DNA of 64,000 bases, taken from assembly GCA_965250285.1 (NCBI GenBank), contig OZ252299.1:4512001-4576000 (forward strand), written 5' to 3'. This document shows, piece by piece, positions 28,249 to 42,843 of the stretch (its first letter is position 1; each line of letters starts with the position of its first letter). The notes under the pieces were generated by a model that was given only the letters and a program-made list of their open reading frames with translations, was not told the DNA's origin and searched no databases. A program made the position numbers and the translations under genes. The DNA is from Myxococcota bacterium (GTDB taxonomy: Bacteria; Myxococcota_A; UBA9160; UBA4427).

Positions 28249-28570
28249 AGCCCGGGCTCCATCTGGGTGCGAAGGGGAGACTCGCCTGGCCACCGAATCG
28301 AGGCGCTTCGCTCGAAGACACGCCTCTGATCCGCGAGCGAATCGGTCCTTCGCGCATGAGCACCGATGATGCCGGCCTGGGGCCCCGCCGGCGAGGGGCC
28401 GGGTCGCCTCTGCGAAGCGCTGGGTGGCCCCGGGAGGGGCCGTGCCGCGAGCCACCCGACGAAGTCGGCCCGCGCATCGGGTTCGAGGGCGGGCCGAAGC
28501 GAACCCGTCGTCTCGAGCGGGCATCTATTCTTCTTGTCGTGCGCGCGCGCATGGCCGCGTGCGTGAGGGG

Positions 28571-30136
28571 GTGACCGTGACGAGGCAGCGATCGATCACC
28601 CGGGCGAGATGGGCCCGCGCCCGCACAGCCGTGTCCGCCATCGGGGCCATGCTCGTCGCGGGCATCGGCTGCGCGCCGAAGGCGCCGCCGGTCGCCCTCG
28701 CTCCACCCACCGTGTTCGACCGGCTCGAGCAGCCCGAAGAAGGCGCGGCGGGCTTCGAAGCGCGCCCGGGCGAGATCGACCCCGCTGAGCTCATCCCGCT
28801 CGATCTGTTGCAGGGCCCCCATCACGTGGTTCGCTCCGCTCGCCTCGACGACCGAATGCTCTACGTCTTCGTCGTCGACAGCGACCTCGGGCCGCTCGAA
28901 GTCACGGGCCGCGGCCTGCTTCGCAAGCGGGTGTACGAGATCGAGGCGCTGGCCACCTACGATGAACGCGACCTGAACAGCGGCGAGGTCTACGCCATCG
29001 AGCTGGCGAACGCGGCGAGCGAACCGGTCGAAGGCGTGCTGCAGATCGGGCGGCACCCGGTGCGGACGGTCACCAACATCCCGCGTGGCCTCGTGCACGT
29101 GTTCAAGGCCACCGGCGAGATGTTCAAGGGCGGCCGCACGCACCTCGAAGACGACTACACCGACGAGATGATCGGCCTGAGCGGGCAGAAGCGGCTCTGG
29201 GCCGCGCGCCTCGGCGTCGACCCGCACTCGACCAATCCCCACGTACAGGCGCGCCTCAAGCGAAACGGTTGGATGAGTCTGCTCGGCCAGCTGAGCGTGC
29301 AGGTCGCGACGATCCCGGTGCCGGCCGGCGCAGCCACGATTGCGATGTCGGGCGTCGGCGCGACGACGAGCATGAACGAGCAGCTCGACGACGAGTCGCC
29401 CGAGGACGTGCGCGTGCGCACGCGCGGCTTCTTGATGGACGAGCTCGGCACCGACGAAGCGCTCGCCGAGCGTTTTCTGTCGCACCCGTGGTACCCGCCG
29501 AACCACCAGGCCACGATCATCCGATCGCTCGGTGAGATGCACGGGGTGCAGGGGCGTCACGAGTTCATCGAGATGGCCTCGCAGGCCGACGAGGCGCACG
29601 AAGCCTATGCCTTTACACGCCTGGCATTGATGTTCGGCGAGATCCACGCGCGGCGGGCGCGTCTTTCGCGAATCGAGCCGACCGGCGACTGGCTCGTCGG
29701 GCGCGGCGTCGACGACCGCCCCATCGTGCCGCTCTATCTCGACCATCTGGTCTGGACGAATCGCGTCGCCGAAGCCGAGGCCGAACTCAATCTCGCGCTC
29801 GACGCCGACGAAGCCCCGGACCCGCTGCTCATCGTGTCGGGCGACCTGACCCCGCGTGCCGCCGATGAGCTCGCAGATCGCGGCTGGCTGACGACGCAGG
29901 GCATCGAGCACCTCTGGCTCGCGGGCATCGACCTCGAGCGCCACATGCCCGAGGGCCCCGACGAGGGCCGCATCCTGCCCGAGTTCGGCGGCTGGTCGTC
30001 GCTCGAGTCGTGGCGCATCGCCGCGCACCGCGCACAACAAGAGAAGCAGCCTCGACCCGTCGCGGACGAGATTGGCGAGGTGGAGCAGGTCGCCGTGCGA
30101 ACGAGCGAAGCACCCGCCGAGTCGGGCGTTCGCTAG
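28571..30136 (+). CDS. Hypothetical lipoprotein
   Basis: Typical codon usage and lipobox-like GIGC; the last ~20 codons and the stop come from the 89-bp repeat. Confidence 0.65.
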   Translation: MTVTRQRSITRARWARARTAVSAIGAMLVAGIGCAPKAPPVALAPPTVFDRLEQPEEGAAGFEARPGEIDPAELIPLDLLQGPHHVVRSARLDDRMLYVFVVDSDLGPLEVTGRGLLRKRVYEIEALATYDERDLNSGEVYAIELANAASEPVEGVLQIGRHPVRTVTNIPRGLVHVFKATGEMFKGGRTHLEDDYTDEMIGLSGQKRLWAARLGVDPHSTNPHVQARLKRNGWMSLLGQLSVQVATIPVPAGAATIAMSGVGATTSMNEQLDDESPEDVRVRTRGFLMDELGTDEALAERFLSHPWYPPNHQATIIRSLGEMHGVQGRHEFIEMASQADEAHEAYAFTRLALMFGEIHARRARLSRIEPTGDWLVGRGVDDRPIVPLYLDHLVWTNRVAEAEAELNLALDADEAPDPLLIVSGDLTPRAADELADRGWLTTQGIEHLWLAGIDLERHMPEGPDEGRILPEFGGWSSLESWRIAAHRAQQEKQPRPVADEIGEVEQVAVRTSEAPAESGVR

Positions 30137-30541: not shown

Positions 30542-31177
30542 CTAGAGGCCGCGCTTCAGCTCGAGCAACGCTTCGCGGGAGACGGCCAGCAGATCGACCC
30601 GGGTGGGGTCTGCAAGCCAGACCTCCATCGCCGCCATCGTCGCCATGTTGAGTGCGTGCGCCTGCACGCGAACGCGAACGCTGCCGAGCGGCTCTCCCAA
30701 TCGACGCGCCACGTCCTGCGCCAGGATGTTCACGAACCTCTCACCCATGGCGATCGCTCGGGGCGCAAGCGCGGGGGTGGTCGCGATCAAGGCGAAATCA
30801 CCCGCCTCGTCGACGTTCGGCCGAAGACCCGCGACCTCGACACTCGTGGCGACTGCGAGGCAGGCGTCGATCGGAGACTCGTGTGCCGGACGCGCACAGA
30901 TCGCTTCGACCATCACCTCGGCCCGGCGGCGAATGCCCTCGAGCGCAACGCCCTCCTTGCTCTCGAAGTACCGGAAGAACGTGCTCTCCGAGACGTCCGC
31001 GGCTTCGGCGATCTCGGCGATGCGGGTCTGCTGATAGCCCTGCTTGGCGAACAGCTCGAGCGCAGCTCGGTGGAGCTTGTCTCGTGTTTCCTGCTTCTTG
31101 CGCTCACGCAGACCCTGCTGCGCGGGGGAGCTCGGTTCTTTCGGCTCTTTCGGTTCTGCCGTGTCTCGAGGCGTCAT
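30542..31177 (-). CDS. TetR family transcriptional regulator
   Basis: GLRERKKQETR...ELFAKQGY..TRIAEIAEAADVSESTFFRYFESKE. Confidence 0.93.
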   Translation of the reverse strand: MTPRDTAEPKEPKEPSSPAQQGLRERKKQETRDKLHRAALELFAKQGYQQTRIAEIAEAADVSESTFFRYFESKEGVALEGIRRRAEVMVEAICARPAHESPIDACLAVATSVEVAGLRPNVDEAGDFALIATTPALAPRAIAMGERFVNILAQDVARRLGEPLGSVRVRVQAHALNMATMAAMEVWLADPTRVDLLAVSREALLELKRGL

Positions 31178-31720
31178 CGCGTCGAGACTACCAGACCGGC
31201 CCTCGATCATGAGATGGCCGGCACCAGTCCAACCGAACCGCGGCCCGTCGCAGCACGTGCAGTCCGGCCATCAATGCGCCTTCTTTAGCTCCCCTTTCGC
31301 GACTCCGCCCGCGACGGAAAAGGGCGGATCAACCCGAAGCGGTCGCAGCACGCTCGAGCTCGTGGGCAGCGCAGAAACCGGCCTCGCCCGAAATCTCGCG
31401 TTCGAATCGGTGGCGTTCGGCGATCTGCCAGTGAAAGAGCTGACCGAAGCCAAGACCGTGCGCTCCGAAGGAGAGCGTCGAACGCTTGGCGATACACGAG
31501 CGCCGCCTGACGCGTGCGTCGTCTCGGCCAGAGGAAAGGAGCCCTCCCGCGTGCTCGCAAGCGGGTGCGAGCTCCCCAGCGCCGGGTGAGCGCGGGCCGG
31601 CGCGATCGGCCCGCGTCGACATGCCCGACGCCGAAGCCCTCGACGAGCGCAACGAGGACGGCGGCGCTGGAGATCCCTGTGACGGCAGATCCGGATACCC
31701 GTCGCTCGATGGTCAGAAAA

Positions 31721-31750
31721 TGATAGAACAGTCAATTGAAATAACTATCA
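31721..31750. promoter_or_regulatory. AT-rich palindromic operator
   Basis: TGATAG-N5-TCAATTGA-N5-CTATCA, 67 bp upstream of the selenoprotein start. Confidence 0.6.
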
Positions 31751-31817
31751 CTTCATGGCATGGTTTGGGCGGATCGCTCAGTCGGAGCTCCGCACGTCGG
31801 AGGAACCGGAGAAGCCC

Positions 31818-32993
31818 ATGCCCCAGATCGAAGAGTCCGTCCCTGCCCACCTCGTCGCGGCCGCCGAGGCCGCCCGAGCCTCGTTCTCGGCGGACCAGGG
31901 CAGCGAGTTCAAGGTCACGGGGATCGTCGATCCGCCGCCGGCCGACGGCACCGAGGTCGCCGACCGCGACCTCCAGCTGATCCTCTGCGGCCAGCAGGAC
32001 GGTCAGGACGTCTGCCTGCGCGAGCGCTTCGCGATTGCGCCGAGCGGCGGCGGCTTCGAGGTCGAGCGCCTCGAGAGCGAGCCGGACGTGGGCTCCCCGG
32101 CGCCGGAGCTCGACCCGCCCGTCGGCGTGCGCGCCCGTTGGCTCGACGAGACGATTGGCCGTCACGCCTTCACCGTCTTGCTCTTCTACCGAGGCTTCTG
32201 GTGACCGCCTTGTCGCCGCGAGTTGCGCGGCTACGCAGGTCAAGGTGTCCTCAAGGCGATCCGTGAGGCCGGGGGAGAAATCTACGCGATTACGAGCGAG
32301 CCCCAGACCGTGGCGCGCATGGCCCAGGACGGGTGGGAGACCGACATGGAGCACGTCGGCGATCCCCACCAGGAGATCGCCGACGAGTGCGCCGGGCGCG
32401 GCTGGATGTCGCTCTTCAAGTGGGACTTGCTCGAGGGGGCCGGGAGTCCCGAGGCGAGCTATCTCGGCAACGCTACGCCGGAGGAGTGGATTTCGCACCC
32501 AAAGGGTGCCTTCCAGCCCGGCGTGCTGGTGCTCGATCGCGAAGGTCGCGTGCTGTACCGCTGGCGTTGCCGGCCGACGCGCAACAATGTCGGCGGGGCG
32601 ATCTCGCGGCCGACACCGCAGTATGTCTGGCGGCGCACCCAGGCCGCGCGGCTCGAGCCGACGGGCGCTCCCGACGCGCCGATGGACACCGACCCGGAGC
32701 TCGACATCCCCGAGGTCCCGTGGCCCATGTTCGTCGCCTTGCTCCTCGCGAACGGATGGTTCTTGCGGCCCAAGTTCTTCATGCAGCGCGAGGGTAATGA
32801 CCTTGACGGCATGTCGCGCGCGGCGATCGCGCGATTCCCGCTCTTCATCGCGGCATGGGCGGCAGCGATCTGGCTCCTGCCGGTCTGGGCCGTCGCTCTG
32901 GCTTTGGCGATGTGGCTGGCAATGGTCGTGCCGGGCATCCGGATCGTGAATCGCCGCTTCCAGCACTTCGGCCCCGACGAAGAGCCCACATGA
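31818..32993 (+). CDS. Peroxiredoxin-like (AhpC/TSA, thioredoxin fold) selenoprotein with UxxC motif and C-terminal membrane anchor; Sec at TGA 32202-32204
   Basis: ORFs 31755..32204 and 32223..32993 are in the same frame, joined as LLFYRGFW-TGA-PPCRRELR. A SECIS-like hairpin follows the TGA. Confidence 0.82.
32207..32240 (+). other. Bacterial SECIS-like stem-loop
   Basis: Upper stem GCCGCG/CGCGGC with loop AGTTG starting 16 nt after the UGA; lower stem GCCT.GT/GCAGGT. Confidence 0.65.
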
Positions 32994-33147: not shown

Positions 33148-34809
33148 ATGCATCGGTGGCTCATCCGAATCTCGATCGGACTCGTCGTCCTGCTCGCTCC
33201 CGTCGTGGTGTATCGCGCGGAGATCGCGTTGGCCCTGGTTTCGTGGCTGGGCGAGTGGGCGCGGCGCGACGTCGGTCCGAACCGGCCCGTTCCCTGGGAG
33301 CAGGGCCCGGATACGGCCGCCCTCCCCGCCTCCGAGCGGCCGCCCAACGTCGTGCTCATCCTCGCCGACGACATGGGGTGGAACGACGTGTCGACGAACG
33401 GCGGGGGCGCGGGGAAGGGCTCGGTCAGGACGCCAAACATCGACAGGGTCGCCCGCGACGGCGTGAACTTCACCTGGGGCTACGCTGCGAACGGCAGCTG
33501 CGCGCCGTCTCGCGCCGCGATCCTGTCGGGCCGCTACGGCACGCGCTTCGGCTTCGAGTTCACGCCGACGCCCGGCGCAATGATGCCGGCCATGGCCGCG
33601 GTGATGAGCGCCGACCAAACGCCACGGCGCCCCGGGCTCGCCAACTTCGACGCGCGATCGACTCCCTGGGAAGAGATGGGGATGCCGTCGAGCGAGATCT
33701 CGCTGGCCGAGACGCTGAAGAAGGCGGGCTACCACACCGTGCACATCGGCAAGTGGCACGTGGGCGAGACGAATGGCATGGCCGCCAACGACCAGGGCTT
33801 CGACGAGAGCCTGAACATGGGGGGCGCGCTCTTCCTGCCCGAGGACCACCCCGACGTCGTGAACTCGAAACAGGCATTCGATCCGATCGACCGCTTTCTG
33901 TGGGCGATGGGCGGCTACGCCGTGCAGTTCAACAAGGGCCCCGGCTTCGAGCCTCGGGGCCACGTCACCGACTACTACACGGACCAGGCCGTGGAGGTGA
34001 TCCGAGCGAATCGCAATCGACCCTTCTTTCTCTATCTCGCCCACTGGGCCATCCACACGCCGCTCCAGGCGACGCGTGCGGACTACGACGCCTACCCCGA
34101 CATCGAGAGCCACACCGAGCGCACCTATGCGGGCATGATCCGCGCCCTCGACCGGGGCGTCGGACGCGTGCTGGACGAGCTGCGCGCGCAGGGCCTCGAG
34201 GAGAACACGCTCGTGATCTTCACATCCGACAACGGCGGGGCCGGCTACCTCGGTCTCCCGGACGTGAACGCGCCGTTCCGCGGGTGGAAGCTGACCTTCT
34301 TCGAGGGCGGCGTGCATGTGCCCTACATGATGCGCTGGCCGGCGCGGATCGAGCCCGGGCAGACGTTCGACCGGCCCGTCCACCACTTCGACGTGTACGC
34401 CACCGCGGCAGCGGCGGCCGGCGCGCCAATGCCCGACGATCGCAAGATGGACGGGGTCGATCTCATCCCCTTCGTCGAGGGCGCGGCGGAGGGCGTGCCC
34501 CACGAGACGCTCTTCTGGACCCAGGACCACTACCGCGTCGTGCTCCACCAGGGCTGGAAGCTCACGCGCAACGGCCCGAACGACGAGTTCGTCTGGCTCT
34601 TCGATCTCAATGAGGATCCCACCGAGCAACGCAACCTCGCCGACGCTCGCAAGGACAAGGTGAGCGAGCTCGACGCGCTGCTAGCCGCCCACATCGCCGA
34701 GCAAGTGCCCCCGCGCTGGGACTCGCGCGGGGCCGCAGCGATCACGATCGACAAGCACCGAAACCAACCCGAGTCACCCGACGACGAGTTCGTGTACTAC
34801 CCGAACTGA
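33148..34809 (+). CDS. Sulfatase (formylglycine-dependent, Cys type)
   Basis: PNVVLILADDMG, CAPSR, GKWH, FTSDNG, RGWK..FEGG. Confidence 0.95.
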   Translation: MHRWLIRISIGLVVLLAPVVVYRAEIALALVSWLGEWARRDVGPNRPVPWEQGPDTAALPASERPPNVVLILADDMGWNDVSTNGGGAGKGSVRTPNIDRVARDGVNFTWGYAANGSCAPSRAAILSGRYGTRFGFEFTPTPGAMMPAMAAVMSADQTPRRPGLANFDARSTPWEEMGMPSSEISLAETLKKAGYHTVHIGKWHVGETNGMAANDQGFDESLNMGGALFLPEDHPDVVNSKQAFDPIDRFLWAMGGYAVQFNKGPGFEPRGHVTDYYTDQAVEVIRANRNRPFFLYLAHWAIHTPLQATRADYDAYPDIESHTERTYAGMIRALDRGVGRVLDELRAQGLEENTLVIFTSDNGGAGYLGLPDVNAPFRGWKLTFFEGGVHVPYMMRWPARIEPGQTFDRPVHHFDVYATAAAAAGAPMPDDRKMDGVDLIPFVEGAAEGVPHETLFWTQDHYRVVLHQGWKLTRNGPNDEFVWLFDLNEDPTEQRNLADARKDKVSELDALLAAHIAEQVPPRWDSRGAAAITIDKHRNQPESPDDEFVYYPN

Positions 34810-34858
34810 GCGGAGATGCTCTTCGAGTCATGCCACTTTCTCGAGAGAAGGCCAACCC

Positions 34859-35833
34859 TTGGAATCGATCCGCACCCCGGATGAACGCTTCGCCAACCTG
34901 CCCGACTACGGCTTCGAGCCCCACTACATCGAGGTCGACGATCTCGAGGGCGGCCAGCTGCGCATGCACTATGTGGACGAGGGGCCAAGGGATGCACCGC
35001 CCGTCTTCCTCCTTCACGGGGAGCCGACCTGGGCCTATCTCTACCGCAAGATGATTCCCGGTCTGCTGGACGCAGGACATCGCGTGATCGTGCCCGACCA
35101 GATCGGTTTCGGTCGCAGCGACAAGCCCACCCGGAAGGCCGACTACAGCGTCGCGCGCCACGTCCATTGGGTGCGCTCCGCGATGCAGCAGATCGACATC
35201 CAGGACGGCACCTTCTTCGGGCAGGATTGGGGTAGCGTGATCGGCTTCACTGCGGCGTTGCACGAGGCGCCTCGTTGGCGCGCGATGGTCGCGGCGAACG
35301 CCGCCCTGCCCGATCCGCGGAACATGGAGCGCGTCCAGCAGGCCCAGGCGAATTCGAGCGACGAAACGGCCTTCGAACGCTGGCAGGCCTACGCGGCCTC
35401 GGTCGACGAGCTAGACGTCGGCGGGATGATGGTCAACGGCCCTCCAGGCCTCGAGGCGGCCCATGGAGGCCTCGCCCTCTCTGATGCCGAACGCGCTGCG
35501 TACGAAGCCCCCTTTCCCGACGCGCGCTATCAGGCCGGCGTCCTCGTCTTCCCAGCCTTGATCGGAGCTGAGAGACTCGGCATCGAGGGCATCGGACTCT
35601 TCGATGCTGCCTGGCGCGTGCTCGAGAAGTGGGAGAAGCCCTTCCTCACCGCCTATGGCAAGGCCGATCCGGTCCTCGGCTGGTTCGACACGGTCTTCCA
35701 GCAGCACGTTCCCGGCGCCCAGGGGCAGCCCCATCGAAGCTTTCCGGAGGGAGGCCACTTCATTCAAGAGGAGGAGCCGGTCGCCCTCGTCGAGGTAATC
35801 GTCGAGGCGGCTCGACGCGGCGCCGGCGCTTGA
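34859..35833 (+). CDS. Haloalkane dehalogenase (alpha/beta hydrolase)
   Basis: IRTPDERFANLP, HGEPTW, nucleophile GQDWG and HFIQE; TTG start. Confidence 0.9.
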   Translation: MESIRTPDERFANLPDYGFEPHYIEVDDLEGGQLRMHYVDEGPRDAPPVFLLHGEPTWAYLYRKMIPGLLDAGHRVIVPDQIGFGRSDKPTRKADYSVARHVHWVRSAMQQIDIQDGTFFGQDWGSVIGFTAALHEAPRWRAMVAANAALPDPRNMERVQQAQANSSDETAFERWQAYAASVDELDVGGMMVNGPPGLEAAHGGLALSDAERAAYEAPFPDARYQAGVLVFPALIGAERLGIEGIGLFDAAWRVLEKWEKPFLTAYGKADPVLGWFDTVFQQHVPGAQGQPHRSFPEGGHFIQEEEPVALVEVIVEAARRGAGA

Positions 35834-35840
35834 TTCGGCG

Positions 35841-36956
35841 ATGAGCAGCGATCCCTCGGACGACGCGATCGACGTATACGGTTCGGCCATCTCCTACTAC
35901 ACAGGCAAGCTCGAAGGCTATCTCCGCTACAAGGAGATCCCCTACCGCTTCATTCCACTCTCACCGAGCCATCAGCGTCGCCTGCACCGGGAGACGGGGG
36001 CCGCTCAGGTCCCCGCCGTGAAGCTGCCCGACGGTCGTTGGATGACGGATACGACGCCGATGATCGATTGGTTCGAGGCGGAGTCTCCACAGCCCACAGT
36101 GATTCCCGCGGACCCGGTGCAGAGCTTCTTCTGTCGCCTGATCGAAGACTACGCCGAGGAATGGCTCTGGCGCCCGGCGATGCACTATCGCTGGAGCTAT
36201 CGCGGCGACGCTCTGCTCTCGAGTCGACGCATCGCAGAGGAGATCCTGGTCGAGGTCCCGGCGCCCGGCTTCCTCAAGCGCTTCGTCATCCGGCAGCGGC
36301 AATTCCGCGGCTGGGTGAAGGGCGACGGCGTGACCCGTGAGACCCGGGATCATGTCGAAGGCTGCTATCTGAAGATGCTCGACCAGTTGAGCGCCATCTT
36401 CGCACGGCGTCCCTTCCTCTTCGGCCAGCGGCCCAGCCTCGCCGATTTCGGCTTCTTCGCTCCCATCTTCCGCCACTACAGCCAGGATCCGACGCCCGCC
36501 GAGATCATGCGCCAGCGGGGGCCAGCGGTATTCGAGTGGCAGGCACGGCTCTGGAACGCGCGGGCCAGCGAGAGCGAAGGCGGTTGGGTGGAAGGCATCC
36601 CCGACGATCTGGGTCCGATCCTCGACGAGATCGGCAGCGCCTATCTCCCCTATCTCTGCGCCAATGCCGAGGGCTGGAAAGCTGGCCAGCGCCGACACGA
36701 TGCGCTGATCCAGGGTGTGCCCTATTGCAACCTGCCGGTCTCGCAGTACAGGGTGTGGTGCCTCGAGCGCCTCCGCGAGCACTTCGAAGGCCTGCCGGGA
36801 GCGGCGAAGCAAGACGCCCGGAAATTGCTCGAAGCGCACGACTGCTGGGAGCCGCTCTGGCGGATCGAATCGCCCGATTCGGGCTATGCCAGTGAGTCCG
36901 TCCCCTTTCGGGGGCACAAGGTGCACTATCAGAACGCGCGGGCGCCCGCGTCCTGA
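35841..36956 (+). CDS. Glutathione S-transferase family protein
   Basis: SYYTGK, QVP, TDTTP and PFLFGQRPSLADFG. Confidence 0.88.
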   Translation: MSSDPSDDAIDVYGSAISYYTGKLEGYLRYKEIPYRFIPLSPSHQRRLHRETGAAQVPAVKLPDGRWMTDTTPMIDWFEAESPQPTVIPADPVQSFFCRLIEDYAEEWLWRPAMHYRWSYRGDALLSSRRIAEEILVEVPAPGFLKRFVIRQRQFRGWVKGDGVTRETRDHVEGCYLKMLDQLSAIFARRPFLFGQRPSLADFGFFAPIFRHYSQDPTPAEIMRQRGPAVFEWQARLWNARASESEGGWVEGIPDDLGPILDEIGSAYLPYLCANAEGWKAGQRRHDALIQGVPYCNLPVSQYRVWCLERLREHFEGLPGAAKQDARKLLEAHDCWEPLWRIESPDSGYASESVPFRGHKVHYQNARAPAS

Positions 36957-37108
36957 AGTCGCGATCCACCCGGGTGATCGGCACGCGCGTCCCGACGCAG
37001 GCTAGAGCTCGAGCGGCTTGCTCGGCGAGGCCGAAACCCGCGCTTGGTCATCGCCGATCTTCGTGAACCACGCCGGCTCGTGAGCCGAATCTGGAGGACC
37101 GAACCACC

Positions 37109-37807
37109 ATGTCTACCGAAGACTTCCTACCCGACGAGACCACGCTCGAAGCCCTGGGCGCACTGCCGGACGACGAGCCGGTCGTGATGCTCAACCTGCT
37201 GAAGTACTCGGATGACGGCGGCGAGGCCTACGCGAAGTACGGCCGCATCGCGTGGCAGCAGATCAAGAAGCGCGGAGGCCGCATCCTCTACGACGGCGCG
37301 CCGCTCGTCACCGATCCGGCGGCGGGAGACTGGGATCGGGTGATCTTCGTCCAGTACCCCAGCCGCGCCGCGTTCATCGACATGATGCGGGACCAGGACT
37401 ATCGCGAGGGTCTCCCTCATCGCAGGGCCGGGCTCGAGCGCACGGTCCTGTATGCGTTCGAGCGCGCTCCCGGGGGACCGCCCTTGGAAGCCGTGAAGCC
37501 CCGCTCCGACGAGGAGATCTTCGTCCTCAACCTGCTGCGCTTCGAGCCGGAGGGCGGCCGCGAGGAGTACCAGAAGTACGGCGACGTGGTGCTCCCGATG
37601 ATCCTCGAGCGCGGAGGCGGGCCCGCGCTCCTCCTCGACGCGCAGCTGCCGCTGGTCTCGGAGGAGACCTGGGAGGATCTCTACCTGGTCCGCTATCCGG
37701 ACCTCGGCAGCTTGCAGGAGATGGTCGCTACCGAGGCGTGGCAGACGGCGAACCAGGATCGAACTCGCGGTCTCGACCTCACCTGGGCGTTCCCGACGCG
37801 ACCCTGA
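37109..37807 (+). CDS. Tandem DUF1330-like (dimeric alpha-beta barrel) protein
   Basis: Two repeats: VVMLNLLKY..YAKYG..WD..VQYPS and FVLNLLRF..YQKYG..W..LVRYP. Confidence 0.8.
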   Translation: MSTEDFLPDETTLEALGALPDDEPVVMLNLLKYSDDGGEAYAKYGRIAWQQIKKRGGRILYDGAPLVTDPAAGDWDRVIFVQYPSRAAFIDMMRDQDYREGLPHRRAGLERTVLYAFERAPGGPPLEAVKPRSDEEIFVLNLLRFEPEGGREEYQKYGDVVLPMILERGGGPALLLDAQLPLVSEETWEDLYLVRYPDLGSLQEMVATEAWQTANQDRTRGLDLTWAFPTRP

Positions 37808-37841
37808 GTCCCGCAGCGCACCCGATGCAGCAGGAGGCCCG

Positions 37842-37919
37842 ATGACGGACTTCATCCGTACGCCGGACGAGAACTTCGACGATCTCGCCGACCTGCACTG
37901 CATCCGGGGCGAGGCGTGA
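37842..37919 (+). pseudogene. 25-codon remnant of a haloalkane dehalogenase N-terminus
   Basis: GGAGG RBS, then MTDFIRTPDENFDDLAD, matching MESIRTPDERFANLPD at 34859; its stop overlaps the next GTG. Confidence 0.6.
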
Positions 37920-38809
37920 GAGTCGTGGCCATCGTCCTGCTCGTCCTCGTGCTGGTGATGTGCTCCGCGATGCTCTGGCAGCACGCGCGCTACGTGGGCA
38001 TCCGGCGGGACCTTCTCCACGATCGCCAGGCCACTTTCTACTCGTCGGACGTCTTCCATACGCTGGTGTTCCTCCGAACGGCGCCGGAGAAGGACGTGAT
38101 CGAGGAGGTGCGGGCGTTCAAGCAAGCGACCGAGGGCTCGGAGGCGTCGTGGATCTACGCAGGGAAGTCCGCTTTGGCGGCTCTCTCGTCGTCGCAGATG
38201 GGCGAGAACGACTGGACCGCCGTCGTGCTCCTGCAGTACCCATCACGCGATGCGTATGCTCGACACGCCGAGTCGACGTCGATGAAGGCGGCGCTCGCGC
38301 GGTTCGAGGAGACGTACACTCAGGGTTTTCGTCGCGGGGCCCTCAGCAACGCCATGATTCCGCAGGGCCTGCTCGCGTACCGACTCTTCCAGCTCGTCAC
38401 GTTCCGTCCTTCGTACTTCCCCTTCGCGAAGGCCAAGGACTACGAGCGATTTCCCGAGGCGGAGGAGTTCGCCCGCCAGCTCCTCGAGGAGAAGGACCTC
38501 GGCCGCGAGGCCCTCCTCATCGTGAACCTGACGAAGGCCGGTACGCCCGAGGAGCAGGCCGCCGATCGCGCGTACGGGGCGTCGATGCTCGGCGCCATGG
38601 CCGAGGCCGGCTACGGCCCCATCCATGCGGGGCGACCGGTTCGACTCGAACGCGACTACGACTTCGACCTGGTCCTGCTCGTCTTCTACCCCGGCGTCGA
38701 GTTCTTCGCCGAGATGATGAAGAGCGAGTTCTATCAGTCGATCTTCGGCGACAAGCAGGTCGGCGATACCCAGGCCAACATGACGGTTCCGATCCTGAAT
38801 CGGCTCTAG
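37916..38809 (+). CDS. Membrane-anchored hypothetical protein (DUF1330-like repeats)
   Basis: N-terminal TM then LWQHARY, DW..VLLQYPSR, IVNL and GYGPIHAG; paralogous to 39750..40664. Confidence 0.75.
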   Translation: MRVVAIVLLVLVLVMCSAMLWQHARYVGIRRDLLHDRQATFYSSDVFHTLVFLRTAPEKDVIEEVRAFKQATEGSEASWIYAGKSALAALSSSQMGENDWTAVVLLQYPSRDAYARHAESTSMKAALARFEETYTQGFRRGALSNAMIPQGLLAYRLFQLVTFRPSYFPFAKAKDYERFPEAEEFARQLLEEKDLGREALLIVNLTKAGTPEEQAADRAYGASMLGAMAEAGYGPIHAGRPVRLERDYDFDLVLLVFYPGVEFFAEMMKSEFYQSIFGDKQVGDTQANMTVPILNRL

Positions 38810-38844
38810 AGGCGACGGGCGTTCGCTCGAAACCGGAGGTGTCC

Positions 38845-39708
38845 ATGGCCGAGACGGACGTCGGCGTCCCGAATCCCAGCACCGTGTCGGTGTACGGTGT
38901 GGACCACTCACCGTGGGTCCAGGCCGTGTTGCTCGGCCTCCAGGAGCGTGGGATCGAGTACCGGACGAGGACCATCCCGCCGCTCGCGGTCTTCCTGCGT
39001 TCCGGGATCCTGATGCCCGCTGCCAGCATCAACGGCGGCTCGTGGATGCTCGACTCCGAACGGATCCTCGTCGCCCTGGGGTTCTCGGAGGTTCCGCGCG
39101 AAGTCCGTCGGGAGCTGACGGTGGCCTTCACGCGGTGCGCCGCGCACCGCCGTGACGACATCCCGGATTTCTGGCGACGGTTCGGCCTCGTGCGCGACGA
39201 GGAGCCCTCCTGGGCGCGGCGCCACTGGAACTTCTTCTGGCGGGCCTTCGCTGCCTTCTACTTCTTCTGTGTCCTCACCGTCGCCCGACGCGCGTTGGGT
39301 CCGTCGACTCCCGAGCAGACCGTTCAGCACTTCTCCACTCTCCAGAAGCGGCTCGACCCCGAGGCGGGGTACTTCGGGGGCGAGCGTCCGGACACCGTCG
39401 ACCTGCAGCTGTTCGGCATCGTGCAGATGTTGGGCAGCATCCCGGGCCCGCCTCTCGGCGTGCTGCGCGAGAAACCGGCGCTCGAGCCGCTCCGCAGCTG
39501 GATCGCACGGATGCAGCAGCGGTTCGAGCACCACCCGGGCCTCTACAGTGGGCCCTACTTCGAGCCCCTGCTGCCGGCGCCCGAGACCGCTCGCACCTCG
39601 GAGCGCGTCGCCTTCGGGTGCGGCGCCGCCCTGATGTGGCTGGCGTTCCCGCTCACCTTCCCCACGGCGCTTGTCTACTTCGTCAGCAACCGGCTGCGTG
39701 GCCTCTAG
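38845..39708 (+). CDS. GST-like protein with C-terminal TM segment
   Basis: GGAGG RBS; SPW, DSE and YFGGERPDTVDLQLFG. Confidence 0.7.
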   Translation: MAETDVGVPNPSTVSVYGVDHSPWVQAVLLGLQERGIEYRTRTIPPLAVFLRSGILMPAASINGGSWMLDSERILVALGFSEVPREVRRELTVAFTRCAAHRRDDIPDFWRRFGLVRDEEPSWARRHWNFFWRAFAAFYFFCVLTVARRALGPSTPEQTVQHFSTLQKRLDPEAGYFGGERPDTVDLQLFGIVQMLGSIPGPPLGVLREKPALEPLRSWIARMQQRFEHHPGLYSGPYFEPLLPAPETARTSERVAFGCGAALMWLAFPLTFPTALVYFVSNRLRGL

Positions 39709-39749
39709 CGCACGGGAATCGGTGACTTCAGCTCTAGCTCCACAGCCTC

Positions 39750-40664
39750 CTAGAGCTTCGAGAGCACCGGGATCGTCGCGAACGCCAGCGTGTCGCCGAG
39801 CTGCTTGCCGGAGGCGATCCGGTTCATGAAGGTGCTGCTCAGCATCGCCTGCATGTGGTCGATCCCCGGGTAGTAGACCGCGGCGAACGACGAAAACCGG
39901 CTGTCGCCCTCGACCGTGACGGCCCGTCCCATGTGCATCGGACCGTATGCCCCTTCGGCCATGCCGCGCACCATCTGGTAGCTGTAGGCGCGGTCGGCCG
40001 CCCGCTGATCGGACGTGCCCGGTAGGAGCAGGTTGAAGATCACGACCGCGTCCTCGCGCACGTCCCGGTACGCATCGAATCTCCCGAGCATTTCTTTCCC
40101 CCGTTCCCGGAACTCGGGGAGGGCGTCTTCTTCGCTCACCGGCTGGAAGGGGAGGATGTTGTCCCGGCGCCGAGCGATGTCGAGCAGTCGCACGCCTCCG
40201 AGACCGAGTGGGATCAAGAGGTTGGTGAGCGCCGATCGCTCGAACCCATGGACGTGGCTGTGCTCGCACTGCTGCAACGCATGCTTCAGCTCGGGGCCAT
40301 TGTGACTTCGGTCGAAAGCCTTGCGCGACGGCCAGTGGGCGAGGATGGCCGCACTCCAGTCGTTCTCGAGCTGGGTCGAAGGCACCATGGTCTGCACGAC
40401 GAGACCGGCGTAGACGAGCTGCCCGCCGCCTGCCTCGATCGCGTCGCGCACGGCGCGGAGAGCTGCGAGCTCACCATCACGCCCCGCTTCATCGTTCACC
40501 CTCAGCAGCAAGACGCCGTGGAAGGTGTGGCCGCCATGCAGAAGAGGCTGGCGGTCGTCGACGCGCTCGCGTCGGATCTCGAGGTATCGGAAGTGCTGCC
40601 ACAGCGCGGCCAAGACCAGGCCGACCACGGCGAGGGCAAGAAGCAGGAACGCGATCTTCAGCAC
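39750..40664 (-). CDS. Membrane-anchored hypothetical protein, paralog of 37916..38809
   Basis: Shares LWQH.RY, DRQ..FH, YAG, NDW, ADRAY, MAE..YGP.H.G, YPG and KQ.GDT...T.P.L with 37916..38809. Confidence 0.75.
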   Translation of the reverse strand: MLKIAFLLLALAVVGLVLAALWQHFRYLEIRRERVDDRQPLLHGGHTFHGVLLLRVNDEAGRDGELAALRAVRDAIEAGGGQLVYAGLVVQTMVPSTQLENDWSAAILAHWPSRKAFDRSHNGPELKHALQQCEHSHVHGFERSALTNLLIPLGLGGVRLLDIARRRDNILPFQPVSEEDALPEFRERGKEMLGRFDAYRDVREDAVVIFNLLLPGTSDQRAADRAYSYQMVRGMAEGAYGPMHMGRAVTVEGDSRFSSFAAVYYPGIDHMQAMLSSTFMNRIASGKQLGDTLAFATIPVLSKL

Positions 40665-42089: not shown

Positions 42090-42437
42090 CGGGTAGCTGC
42101 TTCATTGAGCGTCGGCGCCGCCAACACGAGCGAGGCACTATGGATCTCGGCCGAGATCTCCGCCCAGGCCTGGCTCGAGAGCTCGCCCTGGGCCACGGCC
42201 TCCTGACCAGCCTGCTCCGCCTGTGCAATGAGCTCGCCGATCTGCGTCACGTCGGCTGCGACCGAGTCGGGGCAGACGTTGCGGAAGACGAAGGCGTTCG
42301 CCGCGCGATCCGATGCGGCACCAACCGCGTCGCGCGACAGCAGATCGTGCCGCTGCACGGCGTACTTCGTGATCCCACCGACGAGGGGGCCAGGCGTGAG
42401 GTTCAAAGCGATCGAGAATGCACGCCGCACCGGCGAG
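42090..42437 (-). pseudogene. Internal fragment of a paralog of 51967..54000
   Basis: RRAFSIALNLTPGPLVGGITKYAVQRHDLLSRDAV...TLNEAAT closely matches RRPFSIALGLTPGPLSGGITKYAVRRHDLLSRDAV...TLNDAAT. Confidence 0.8.
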
Positions 42438-42520
42438 GTGGAGCAGGTCGCCGCGCGAACGAGCGAGGCGCCCGCCGAGTCGGGCGTTCGCTAGGCGCTT
42501 CGCGCACACAGACGTCGCCC
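42432..42520 (+). repeat. 89-bp structured dispersed repeat, copy 2
   Basis: 82/89 identical to 30074..30162. Confidence 0.85.
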
Positions 42521-42843
42521 CAGCGCTGGCTCGATGCCATCGGCGGCGTGGCGTCTGCTCTGCTCCCTGAGGCGTGCGCTGATTGCGCCCAACGGGTGGC
42601 CAGGACCGTCTCGGGCGAACTCTGCTCTGCGGAGAGTCCCTGATTCACAGGGGGGATGTGCCGATCGGCCCATGTCCCGGCTCTCGGCCAGCCCATAGGC
42701 TGTCTCCGAGAAGATTCGGATCGAGCGGCCGAAACGAGCCGCGGCGTCCGGACGGCCGGGCCCGGAGAAGATGAGAGACGTCGCGTCGGGGTCGGGCACA
42801 GCGGGGATGCAAGGCGGCAAGCCGACCCCGGGAGAGCCTGTTC

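Follow-up and report, generated by a model that had tools for sequence, protein, structure and literature searches.

A three-domain Prx-like protein from a Myxococcota bacterium with an internal TGA almost certainly read as selenocysteine

Sequence comparison indicates that an internal TGA in a gene of a Myxococcota bacterium is almost certainly read as selenocysteine (Sec), giving one redox protein. The gene occupies positions 31818..32993 on the forward strand of the window, the 64,000-nucleotide stretch of DNA that was analyzed, and encodes 391 amino acids with Sec as residue 129; homologues align with it from Met1 to the end. Translation places the ATG at 31818, the final TGA at 32991-32993 and a single in-frame TGA at 32202-32204 (forward strand), which is codon 129 (U129) and stands within the motif FYRGFW-U-PPCRRELRGY. 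A GGAG sequence is located just 5' of the start (31808-31811), and coding-type base use is seen on both sides of the internal TGA (GC3 0.92 before and 0.85 after). The initial annotation had joined two open reading frame calls into one frame, with a TGA at 32202 inside the FYRGFW/PPC motif, and the translation bears this out, coordinates included. The read-through protein matched PF00578 at 32.1 bits (cut-off 26), and the match spans the TGA.

Standard annotation was expected to split this gene in two, and both the table-11 open reading frame list and the database records agree. The list holds two pieces, the first ending ...FYRGFW at 32204 and the second, of 256 amino acids, beginning at a TTG (32223..32225, forward strand) that lies in the SECIS loop and is taken by gene callers as the start of a second gene devoid of the motif. 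Database matches to the N-terminal part ended exactly at RG-x-W in 62 of 100 cases, with one reading through as CxxC and 37 being other fragments. A search with the full query returned 507 hits and, among the matches listed, 108 of 120 were without CxxC, most being C-terminal pieces.

A total of 61 genomes was searched, and strong matches across the site were found in 26 of them. The TGA lay inside 32 of the 33 matches, the exception being in genome G026; two matches carried extra TAG stops and one was frameshifted. Those three relatives, together with the database pieces, speak for a scarcely credible alternative, namely that the TGA is a real stop, whether it separates two genes, marks a pseudogene or comes from a sequencing error. 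Against it, the same TGA is present in three paralogues, since the source genome carries the gene twice more (50-51% identity, one TGA each), and in 24 other genomes; among 27 loci compared the codon was TGA in 26 and TGT in one, and never TAA or TAG. Furthermore, full-length Cys orthologues exist, the SECIS covaries, and a split would fall inside the active-site motif. Two genes or a pseudogene were ruled out by the TGA conservation, the whole Cys forms and the stem covariation. An in-frame UGA is thus found where homologues have Cys, as in bacterial selenoproteins.

The source genome (G000; 6.25 Mb, one contig, 95% complete) encodes SelA (492 bits), SelB (317 bits) and SelD (281 bits), all above cut-off, and a tRNA-SeC gene is present at C1:2050420. 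Two outcomes that the initial annotation had set against its own reading, a genome devoid of Sec machinery together with close homologues all carrying TGC/TGT, or homologues consistently encoded as two separate genes, were not encountered: the machinery was found in full, close homologues keep the TGA, and the Cys homologues are single full-length genes. Its proposal of a 391-residue selenoprotein with Sec129 stands, given the conserved TGA, the machinery and the covarying stem. The selA gene scored above cut-off in all 24 of the other TGA-form genomes and in none of five Cys-form genomes of other phyla, the completeness of those five not being given; selB was above cut-off in 0 of 4 tested Cys-form genomes of other phyla. 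Note, however, that 16 of 17 relatives in which the gene is absent have selA too, so that it discriminates only across phyla, and that G026, a genome with a Cys form, has selA as well.

In a phylum sample of 301 genomes, 23 were matched, all inside the window's class. Named database records of the split form belong to Myxococcota or Deltaproteobacteria, and those of the whole Cys form to Saprospiraceae, Lewinella, Verrucomicrobiales and one member of the Myxococcota. The scan of genome contigs used a Cys-form pattern by which TGA forms could not be listed, and it does not fix the range of the Sec form outside the window's class. Broken family copies were observed at L011 (G046), L153 (G034), L032 (G006) and L038, with extra TAG stops or frameshifts 3' of the active site. 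Nine further likely selenoprotein genes were also seen in the source genome (C1 121328, 3706377, 3939510, 3873825, 2320738, 2346508, 1311786, 3020228 and 2261940) by a crude, incomplete scan that recovered only one of the three known copies of the present family. From their motifs, with some labels given by likeness, we take three to be GrdB/PrdB-like, four to be other Prx-like UxxC proteins and two to be UGSC proteins.

The bacterial SECIS (32211..32235, forward strand) comprises a 6-bp upper stem at 32215-32231, a loop of AGUUG and a weaker 3-bp lower stem. The hairpin GCCGCG-AGTTG-CGCGGC, with a folding energy of -10.5 kcal/mol, places its loop 16 nt beyond the UGA and has G as the second loop nucleotide; its sequence, loop distance and G were all as first described. 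The bacterial SECIS model allows a loop of 3-9 nt, a stem of 4-16 bp, G in the first two loop positions, a spacing of 16-37 nt and an MFE of at most -7.5 (PMC13188914), and the corresponding values here are 5 nt, 6 bp, AG, 16 nt and -10.5, with the optional N1-N2 loop pair absent. By itself the hairpin is modest evidence, because it lies at a z of about -2 against shuffles and because, of 4000 random TGAs from the 69% GC source genome, 254 pass a loose SECIS rule and nine a strict one. An Rfam search gave nothing real. The element goes beyond chance because the TGA is conserved and the stem covaries. All six upper pairs stay intact throughout 26 TGA-form sequences, two of them with changes on both sides; 96.2% of the cells in the alignment are paired, with 21 double changes, a level reached by 0 of 500 shuffles and compared with 24-62% in slid controls. 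SelB would, with very little doubt, bind this hairpin 16 nt downstream and insert Sec at codon 129.

Metagenomes were scanned with a pattern that fixed the TGA and its flanking residues and put few constraints on codon 134, the wobble positions and the 3' arm. At least 120 loci were recovered, and all 120 listed score above 60 bits against the family profile. Among 102 distinct sequences, pair 32:42 was kept in 101 (TA 44, CG 32, GC 18, TG 5, AT 2), pair 30:44 in 102 and pair 31:43 in 90, counts that come from related sequences and are not independent events. The third base of Arg137 follows the middle base of codon 134 in pair 32:42, and the loop starts with AG in all 102 sequences although the pattern allowed GAA. 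When six Cys-form loci were taken with the window's row, pairing dropped to 76%, and GAA was found in four of the six; three of those four are in AT-rich genomes, which may explain part of the drop. The family is a clean natural case of a SECIS shaping a protein, with residue 134 (R, S, L, F, H or A) covarying with codons 137-138 while the stem is kept.

A quick tree was built from 88 full-length proteins, namely 24 genome TGA forms, 50 of the 120 listed metagenome loci (those long enough and distinct) and 14 Cys forms. All Cys forms were placed with the window's gene in one subfamily, defined by x8 spacing of an N-domain cysteine pair (SH-aLRT 99). The tree needs two changes of state, and a single clade of all Cys forms was rejected (p-AU 0.012). 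Under a midpoint root, and with metagenome rows that had been selected for TGA, both changes would run from Sec to Cys, a direction that is provisional for the larger Cys clade in a tree rooted with no outgroup. At least two separate Sec/Cys switches provide ready Cys controls for biochemistry.

The Sec reading is already in print at the sequence level, because Dataset S1 of Zhang & Gladyshev 2008 prints family members with U, between its 'Prx-like 1' and 'Prx-like 2' headers (PMC2398784). This dataset holds 20 FYRGFWUPPC and seven YRGLWUPPC sequences, some with the N-domain and some with C-terminal helices. Having PF00578 above cut-off and a UxxC motif, the protein falls into the class named 'Prx-like thiol:disulfide oxidoreductase' or 'Prx-like 1' (PMC13188914 Table 1, PMC2398784), with which it also shares a bacterial SECIS; that class is a broad bin, unlike the three-part subfamily described here. 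The fusion section and Figure S1 of PMC2398784 show neither the present N-domain nor the anchor, and 'Unknown_2/Prx-like 2' of the same paper is, by eye, a different sequence. A 2026 table of 119 selenoprotein families has no entry for the three-part architecture (PMC13188914). No description of it was found in the literature, where subscription papers, bioRxiv supplements or selenoprotein databases may list it, and no NCBIfam model reached cut-off, the generic PF00578 alone doing so. The protein therefore belongs to a known broad selenoprotein class, within which it represents a distinct three-domain subfamily that is apparently undescribed.

The protein is likely a selenol oxidoreductase that is tethered to the membrane and faces the cytoplasm. 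We tentatively propose, with confidence close to but below even, that at the inner membrane it would reduce peroxides of molecules resembling lipids. Its redox core is predicted to have the peroxiredoxin/BCP-like thioredoxin fold (about residues 103-283; 32124..32666, forward strand) and contains R125, U129-P-P-C132, P234 and P253. AlphaFold2, run on a 36-row alignment, modeled the whole protein with a pLDDT of 80 and a pTM of 0.69, the linker at residues 91-96 falling below 50. The top structural matches of the core model were of the 1-Cys Prx and BCP/PrxQ types (Z 13.6-13.8, rmsd 2.5-3.1, 131-140 residues aligned), placing it in the Prx-type thioredoxin fold (Z 13.8, rmsd 2.8, 140 aligned). 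Human PGFS followed (Z 12.3, rmsd 2.7, 126 aligned), with disulfide reductases of the TlpA/ResA type at Z 10-11 and mouse deiodinase 3 at Z 9.4, in 43rd place among the 50 fold matches listed. PGFS and the Prx structures share only 10-17% sequence identity with the protein. On the basis of the model, the core would very probably fold like BCP/PrxQ and PM/PGF synthase.

The label 'peroxiredoxin-like' given by the initial annotation holds for the fold and not for the motif. The canonical PxxxT/SxxC (or TxxU) is absent and R-G-F-W-U-P-P-C is found instead, with R125 in 88/88 sequences; the protein is not a canonical peroxiredoxin, because its motif is UxxC rather than PxxxTxxC or TxxU. Compared with BCP/PrxQ and AhpC, its best structural matches, the core carries Arg125 in place of the motif's Pro and Sec in place of its Thr. 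P234 appears to lie at the position of the catalytic Arg of Prx, at the start of the last hairpin; His184, His227 and Glu161 are invariant in the family. Sec-peroxiredoxins have TxxU (PMC13188914), as opposed to the UxxC of the present protein, which resembles PM/PGF synthase (PRXL2B/FAM213B) in its Prx-like fold and CxxC/UxxC motif. In PGFS, Arg40 lies four residues before Cys44, as Arg125 does before U129, and the CXXC reduces an endoperoxide (PMC12938796); the present protein, at 17% identity to PGFS, adds the N-domain and a C-terminal hairpin. The SelL-related redox protein family NF040769 likewise has a Prx-like fold, CxxC/UxxC and an Arg four residues before, and is without the N-domain and C-terminal hairpin; three members of the present family scored 22, 23.6 and 18.7 bits against it, below the cut-off of 120. 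From the UxxC motif, Sec129 would very likely attack the substrate and Cys132 would resolve the intermediate to an Se-S bond.

The C-terminal hydrophobic module (residues 302-381; 32721..32960, forward strand) is a predicted membrane anchor, made up of a short helix with A-x-G-W-F followed by two helices split by Pro355 (302-312, 329-353 and 356-381 in the model). Hydropathy is about 2 over residues 340-376, with a mean of 4.9 Lys+Arg just before. W347 is present in 88/88 and P355 in 87/88 full-length sequences. No signal peptide was visible by eye at the N terminus, so the core likely faces the cytoplasm, and hydropathy suggests that the C-terminal hairpin would probably hold the protein on the inner membrane face.

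The N-domain (about residues 1-88; 31818..32081, forward strand) is predicted to be cystatin-like, with a helix and four-stranded sheet carrying Cys57 (31986-88) and Cys66 (32013-15). The initial annotation had described an N-domain of about 110 residues with C-x8-C; the Cys pair is present, the fold is confined to about residues 1-88, and x8 applies to one subfamily, x4 being found in most of the family. Modeled alone, the domain gave a pLDDT of 84 and a helix plus four strands. The top seven structure matches were nearly all of cystatin type (best Z 7.3, rmsd 3.5, 74 aligned). Cystatin/monellin-fold proteins (phytocystatins, latexin, colicin M immunity protein) likewise have a helix on a four-stranded antiparallel sheet, but with Z below 8, the tool's caution line, the likeness may be only a common arrangement. 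Foldseek gave no match with E < 0.5, and the window's N-domain has no Pfam match. The QxVxG motif of the cystatin inhibitory loop is absent from the N-domain alignment. The domain was not seen in other proteins, its matches being family fragments, chimeras or low-complexity proteins, and an Atlas search with it returned only unnamed clusters, all below 0.8. A divergent homologue from an AT-rich metagenome (L186:210-1055, reverse strand; 31% identical over 211 aa) has RGNW-U-PPC and the C-terminal hydrophobic part, and the N-domain is apparently absent. Its loop following the UGA is atypical, and a hairpin on the 3' side shows AUGA...AAA...GA in imperfect register. This single sequence is possibly a eukaryotic family member; no relatives of it were found.

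As to the substrate, a lipid-type peroxide is the single likeliest, because of the Arg125/Arg40 spacing shared with PGFS and the anchor. By that analogy a hydrophobic molecule would be the substrate in its hydro- or endoperoxide form, a step given only just less than an even chance, ahead of protein disulfides, with dehalogenation last. It could be that the same selenoprotein instead reduces protein disulfides (or sulfenic acids) of a membrane partner, as a reductase of TlpA/ResA type, with the cystatin-like domain binding the client. Its UxxC, the lack of a Prx motif and the best PDB sequence hits point that way, as does conserved P234, just before strand 235-240 in what we take to be the cis-proline place of thioredoxins; many cystatin-fold matches are, moreover, protein-binding inhibitors. 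However, Prx/BCP and PGFS (Z 12-14) outrank TlpA/ResA in structure, there is no conserved partner gene, and the PDB sequence searches gave no match with E < 0.03, the best, all weak, being ResA/TlpA types and thioredoxins. We consider this reading unlikely, if still a serious competitor to peroxide reduction.

The gene neighborhoods are variable and name no partner, and no conserved operon that would point to a substrate was found among 26 loci: recurring neighbors are scattered (sulfatase 4, alpha/beta hydrolase 3), and two larger neighbor clusters are off-frame ORFs. Up to four full-length family copies occur per genome. Downstream in the window, 33148-40664 encodes a sulfatase, an alpha/beta hydrolase, presumably haloalkane-dehalogenase-like, a GST and several DUF1330-like proteins; similar genes lie near a few homologues in no fixed order. 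This hydrolase and the GST are among the observations that would fit another use of the same core chemistry, in which small hydrophobic compounds are reductively dehalogenated or otherwise reduced, after the manner of deiodinases. The deiodinase 3 match, an Atlas cluster in which 78% of the members carry PF00837 (score 0.83, a lead only) and the three invariant His and Glu residues do so too. Such chemistry is nevertheless improbable, as the deiodinase ranks low in the fold list, no deiodinase family was matched in Pfam or NCBIfam, and the hydrolase and GST neighbors are seen again at no more than 3 of 26 loci.

No sigma-70 promoter or terminator was found at the gene. Two tandem imperfect palindromes (TGATAG-N2-CTATCA type) were observed at 31721-31750, 67-97 nt 5' of the gene; the motif, taken from 31721-31750 itself, has 10 sites in the genome, and no other two of them stand in tandem. 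The pair is a possible operator and was not seen upstream of seven homologues. A divergent TetR/MftR-like gene (30542-31210) lies near it. Further upstream, 28424-30136 is a 570-aa lipoprotein-like ORF with no Pfam match, and flank-like sequence recurs near 42138-42643.

Under the proposed peroxide reductase, the Cys57/Cys66 pair might form an internal relay through which the active site is re-reduced, an idea that is possible but doubtful. Both cysteines are present in 88/88 full-length sequences, whether spaced x4 or x8 and whether the form is Sec or Cys, and from the predicted secondary structure they would face each other by register on two strands of one hairpin. Alternatively, the pair could be only structural or metal-binding, with cellular thioredoxin alone recycling the core; this concerns the relay step only and is quite possible, if somewhat short of an even chance. 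It fits PGFS, which is without such a domain, and L186, which appears to be, and no further Cys or His is invariant in the N-domain alignment. On the other hand, the conservation of both cysteines across spacings and forms argues against it, and structural disulfides are uncommon in cytoplasmic domains.

In its fullest form, which is speculative and rather unlikely, the lipid peroxide reading describes a self-recharging membrane selenoenzyme in which a cystatin-fold redox shuttle, through a cross-strand Cys57-Cys66 disulfide, would feed the Sec-Cys site, making it a bacterial counterpart of PGF synthase or GPx4. If true, the cystatin fold would here have a redox role that our searches did not turn up, and the family bearing it occurs widely in metagenomes, concealed by its split annotation. 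The analysis sets apart a subfamily with three domains within a selenoprotein class that serves as a catch-all, and it puts right a systematic annotation error by which hundreds of database entries are halves of one protein.
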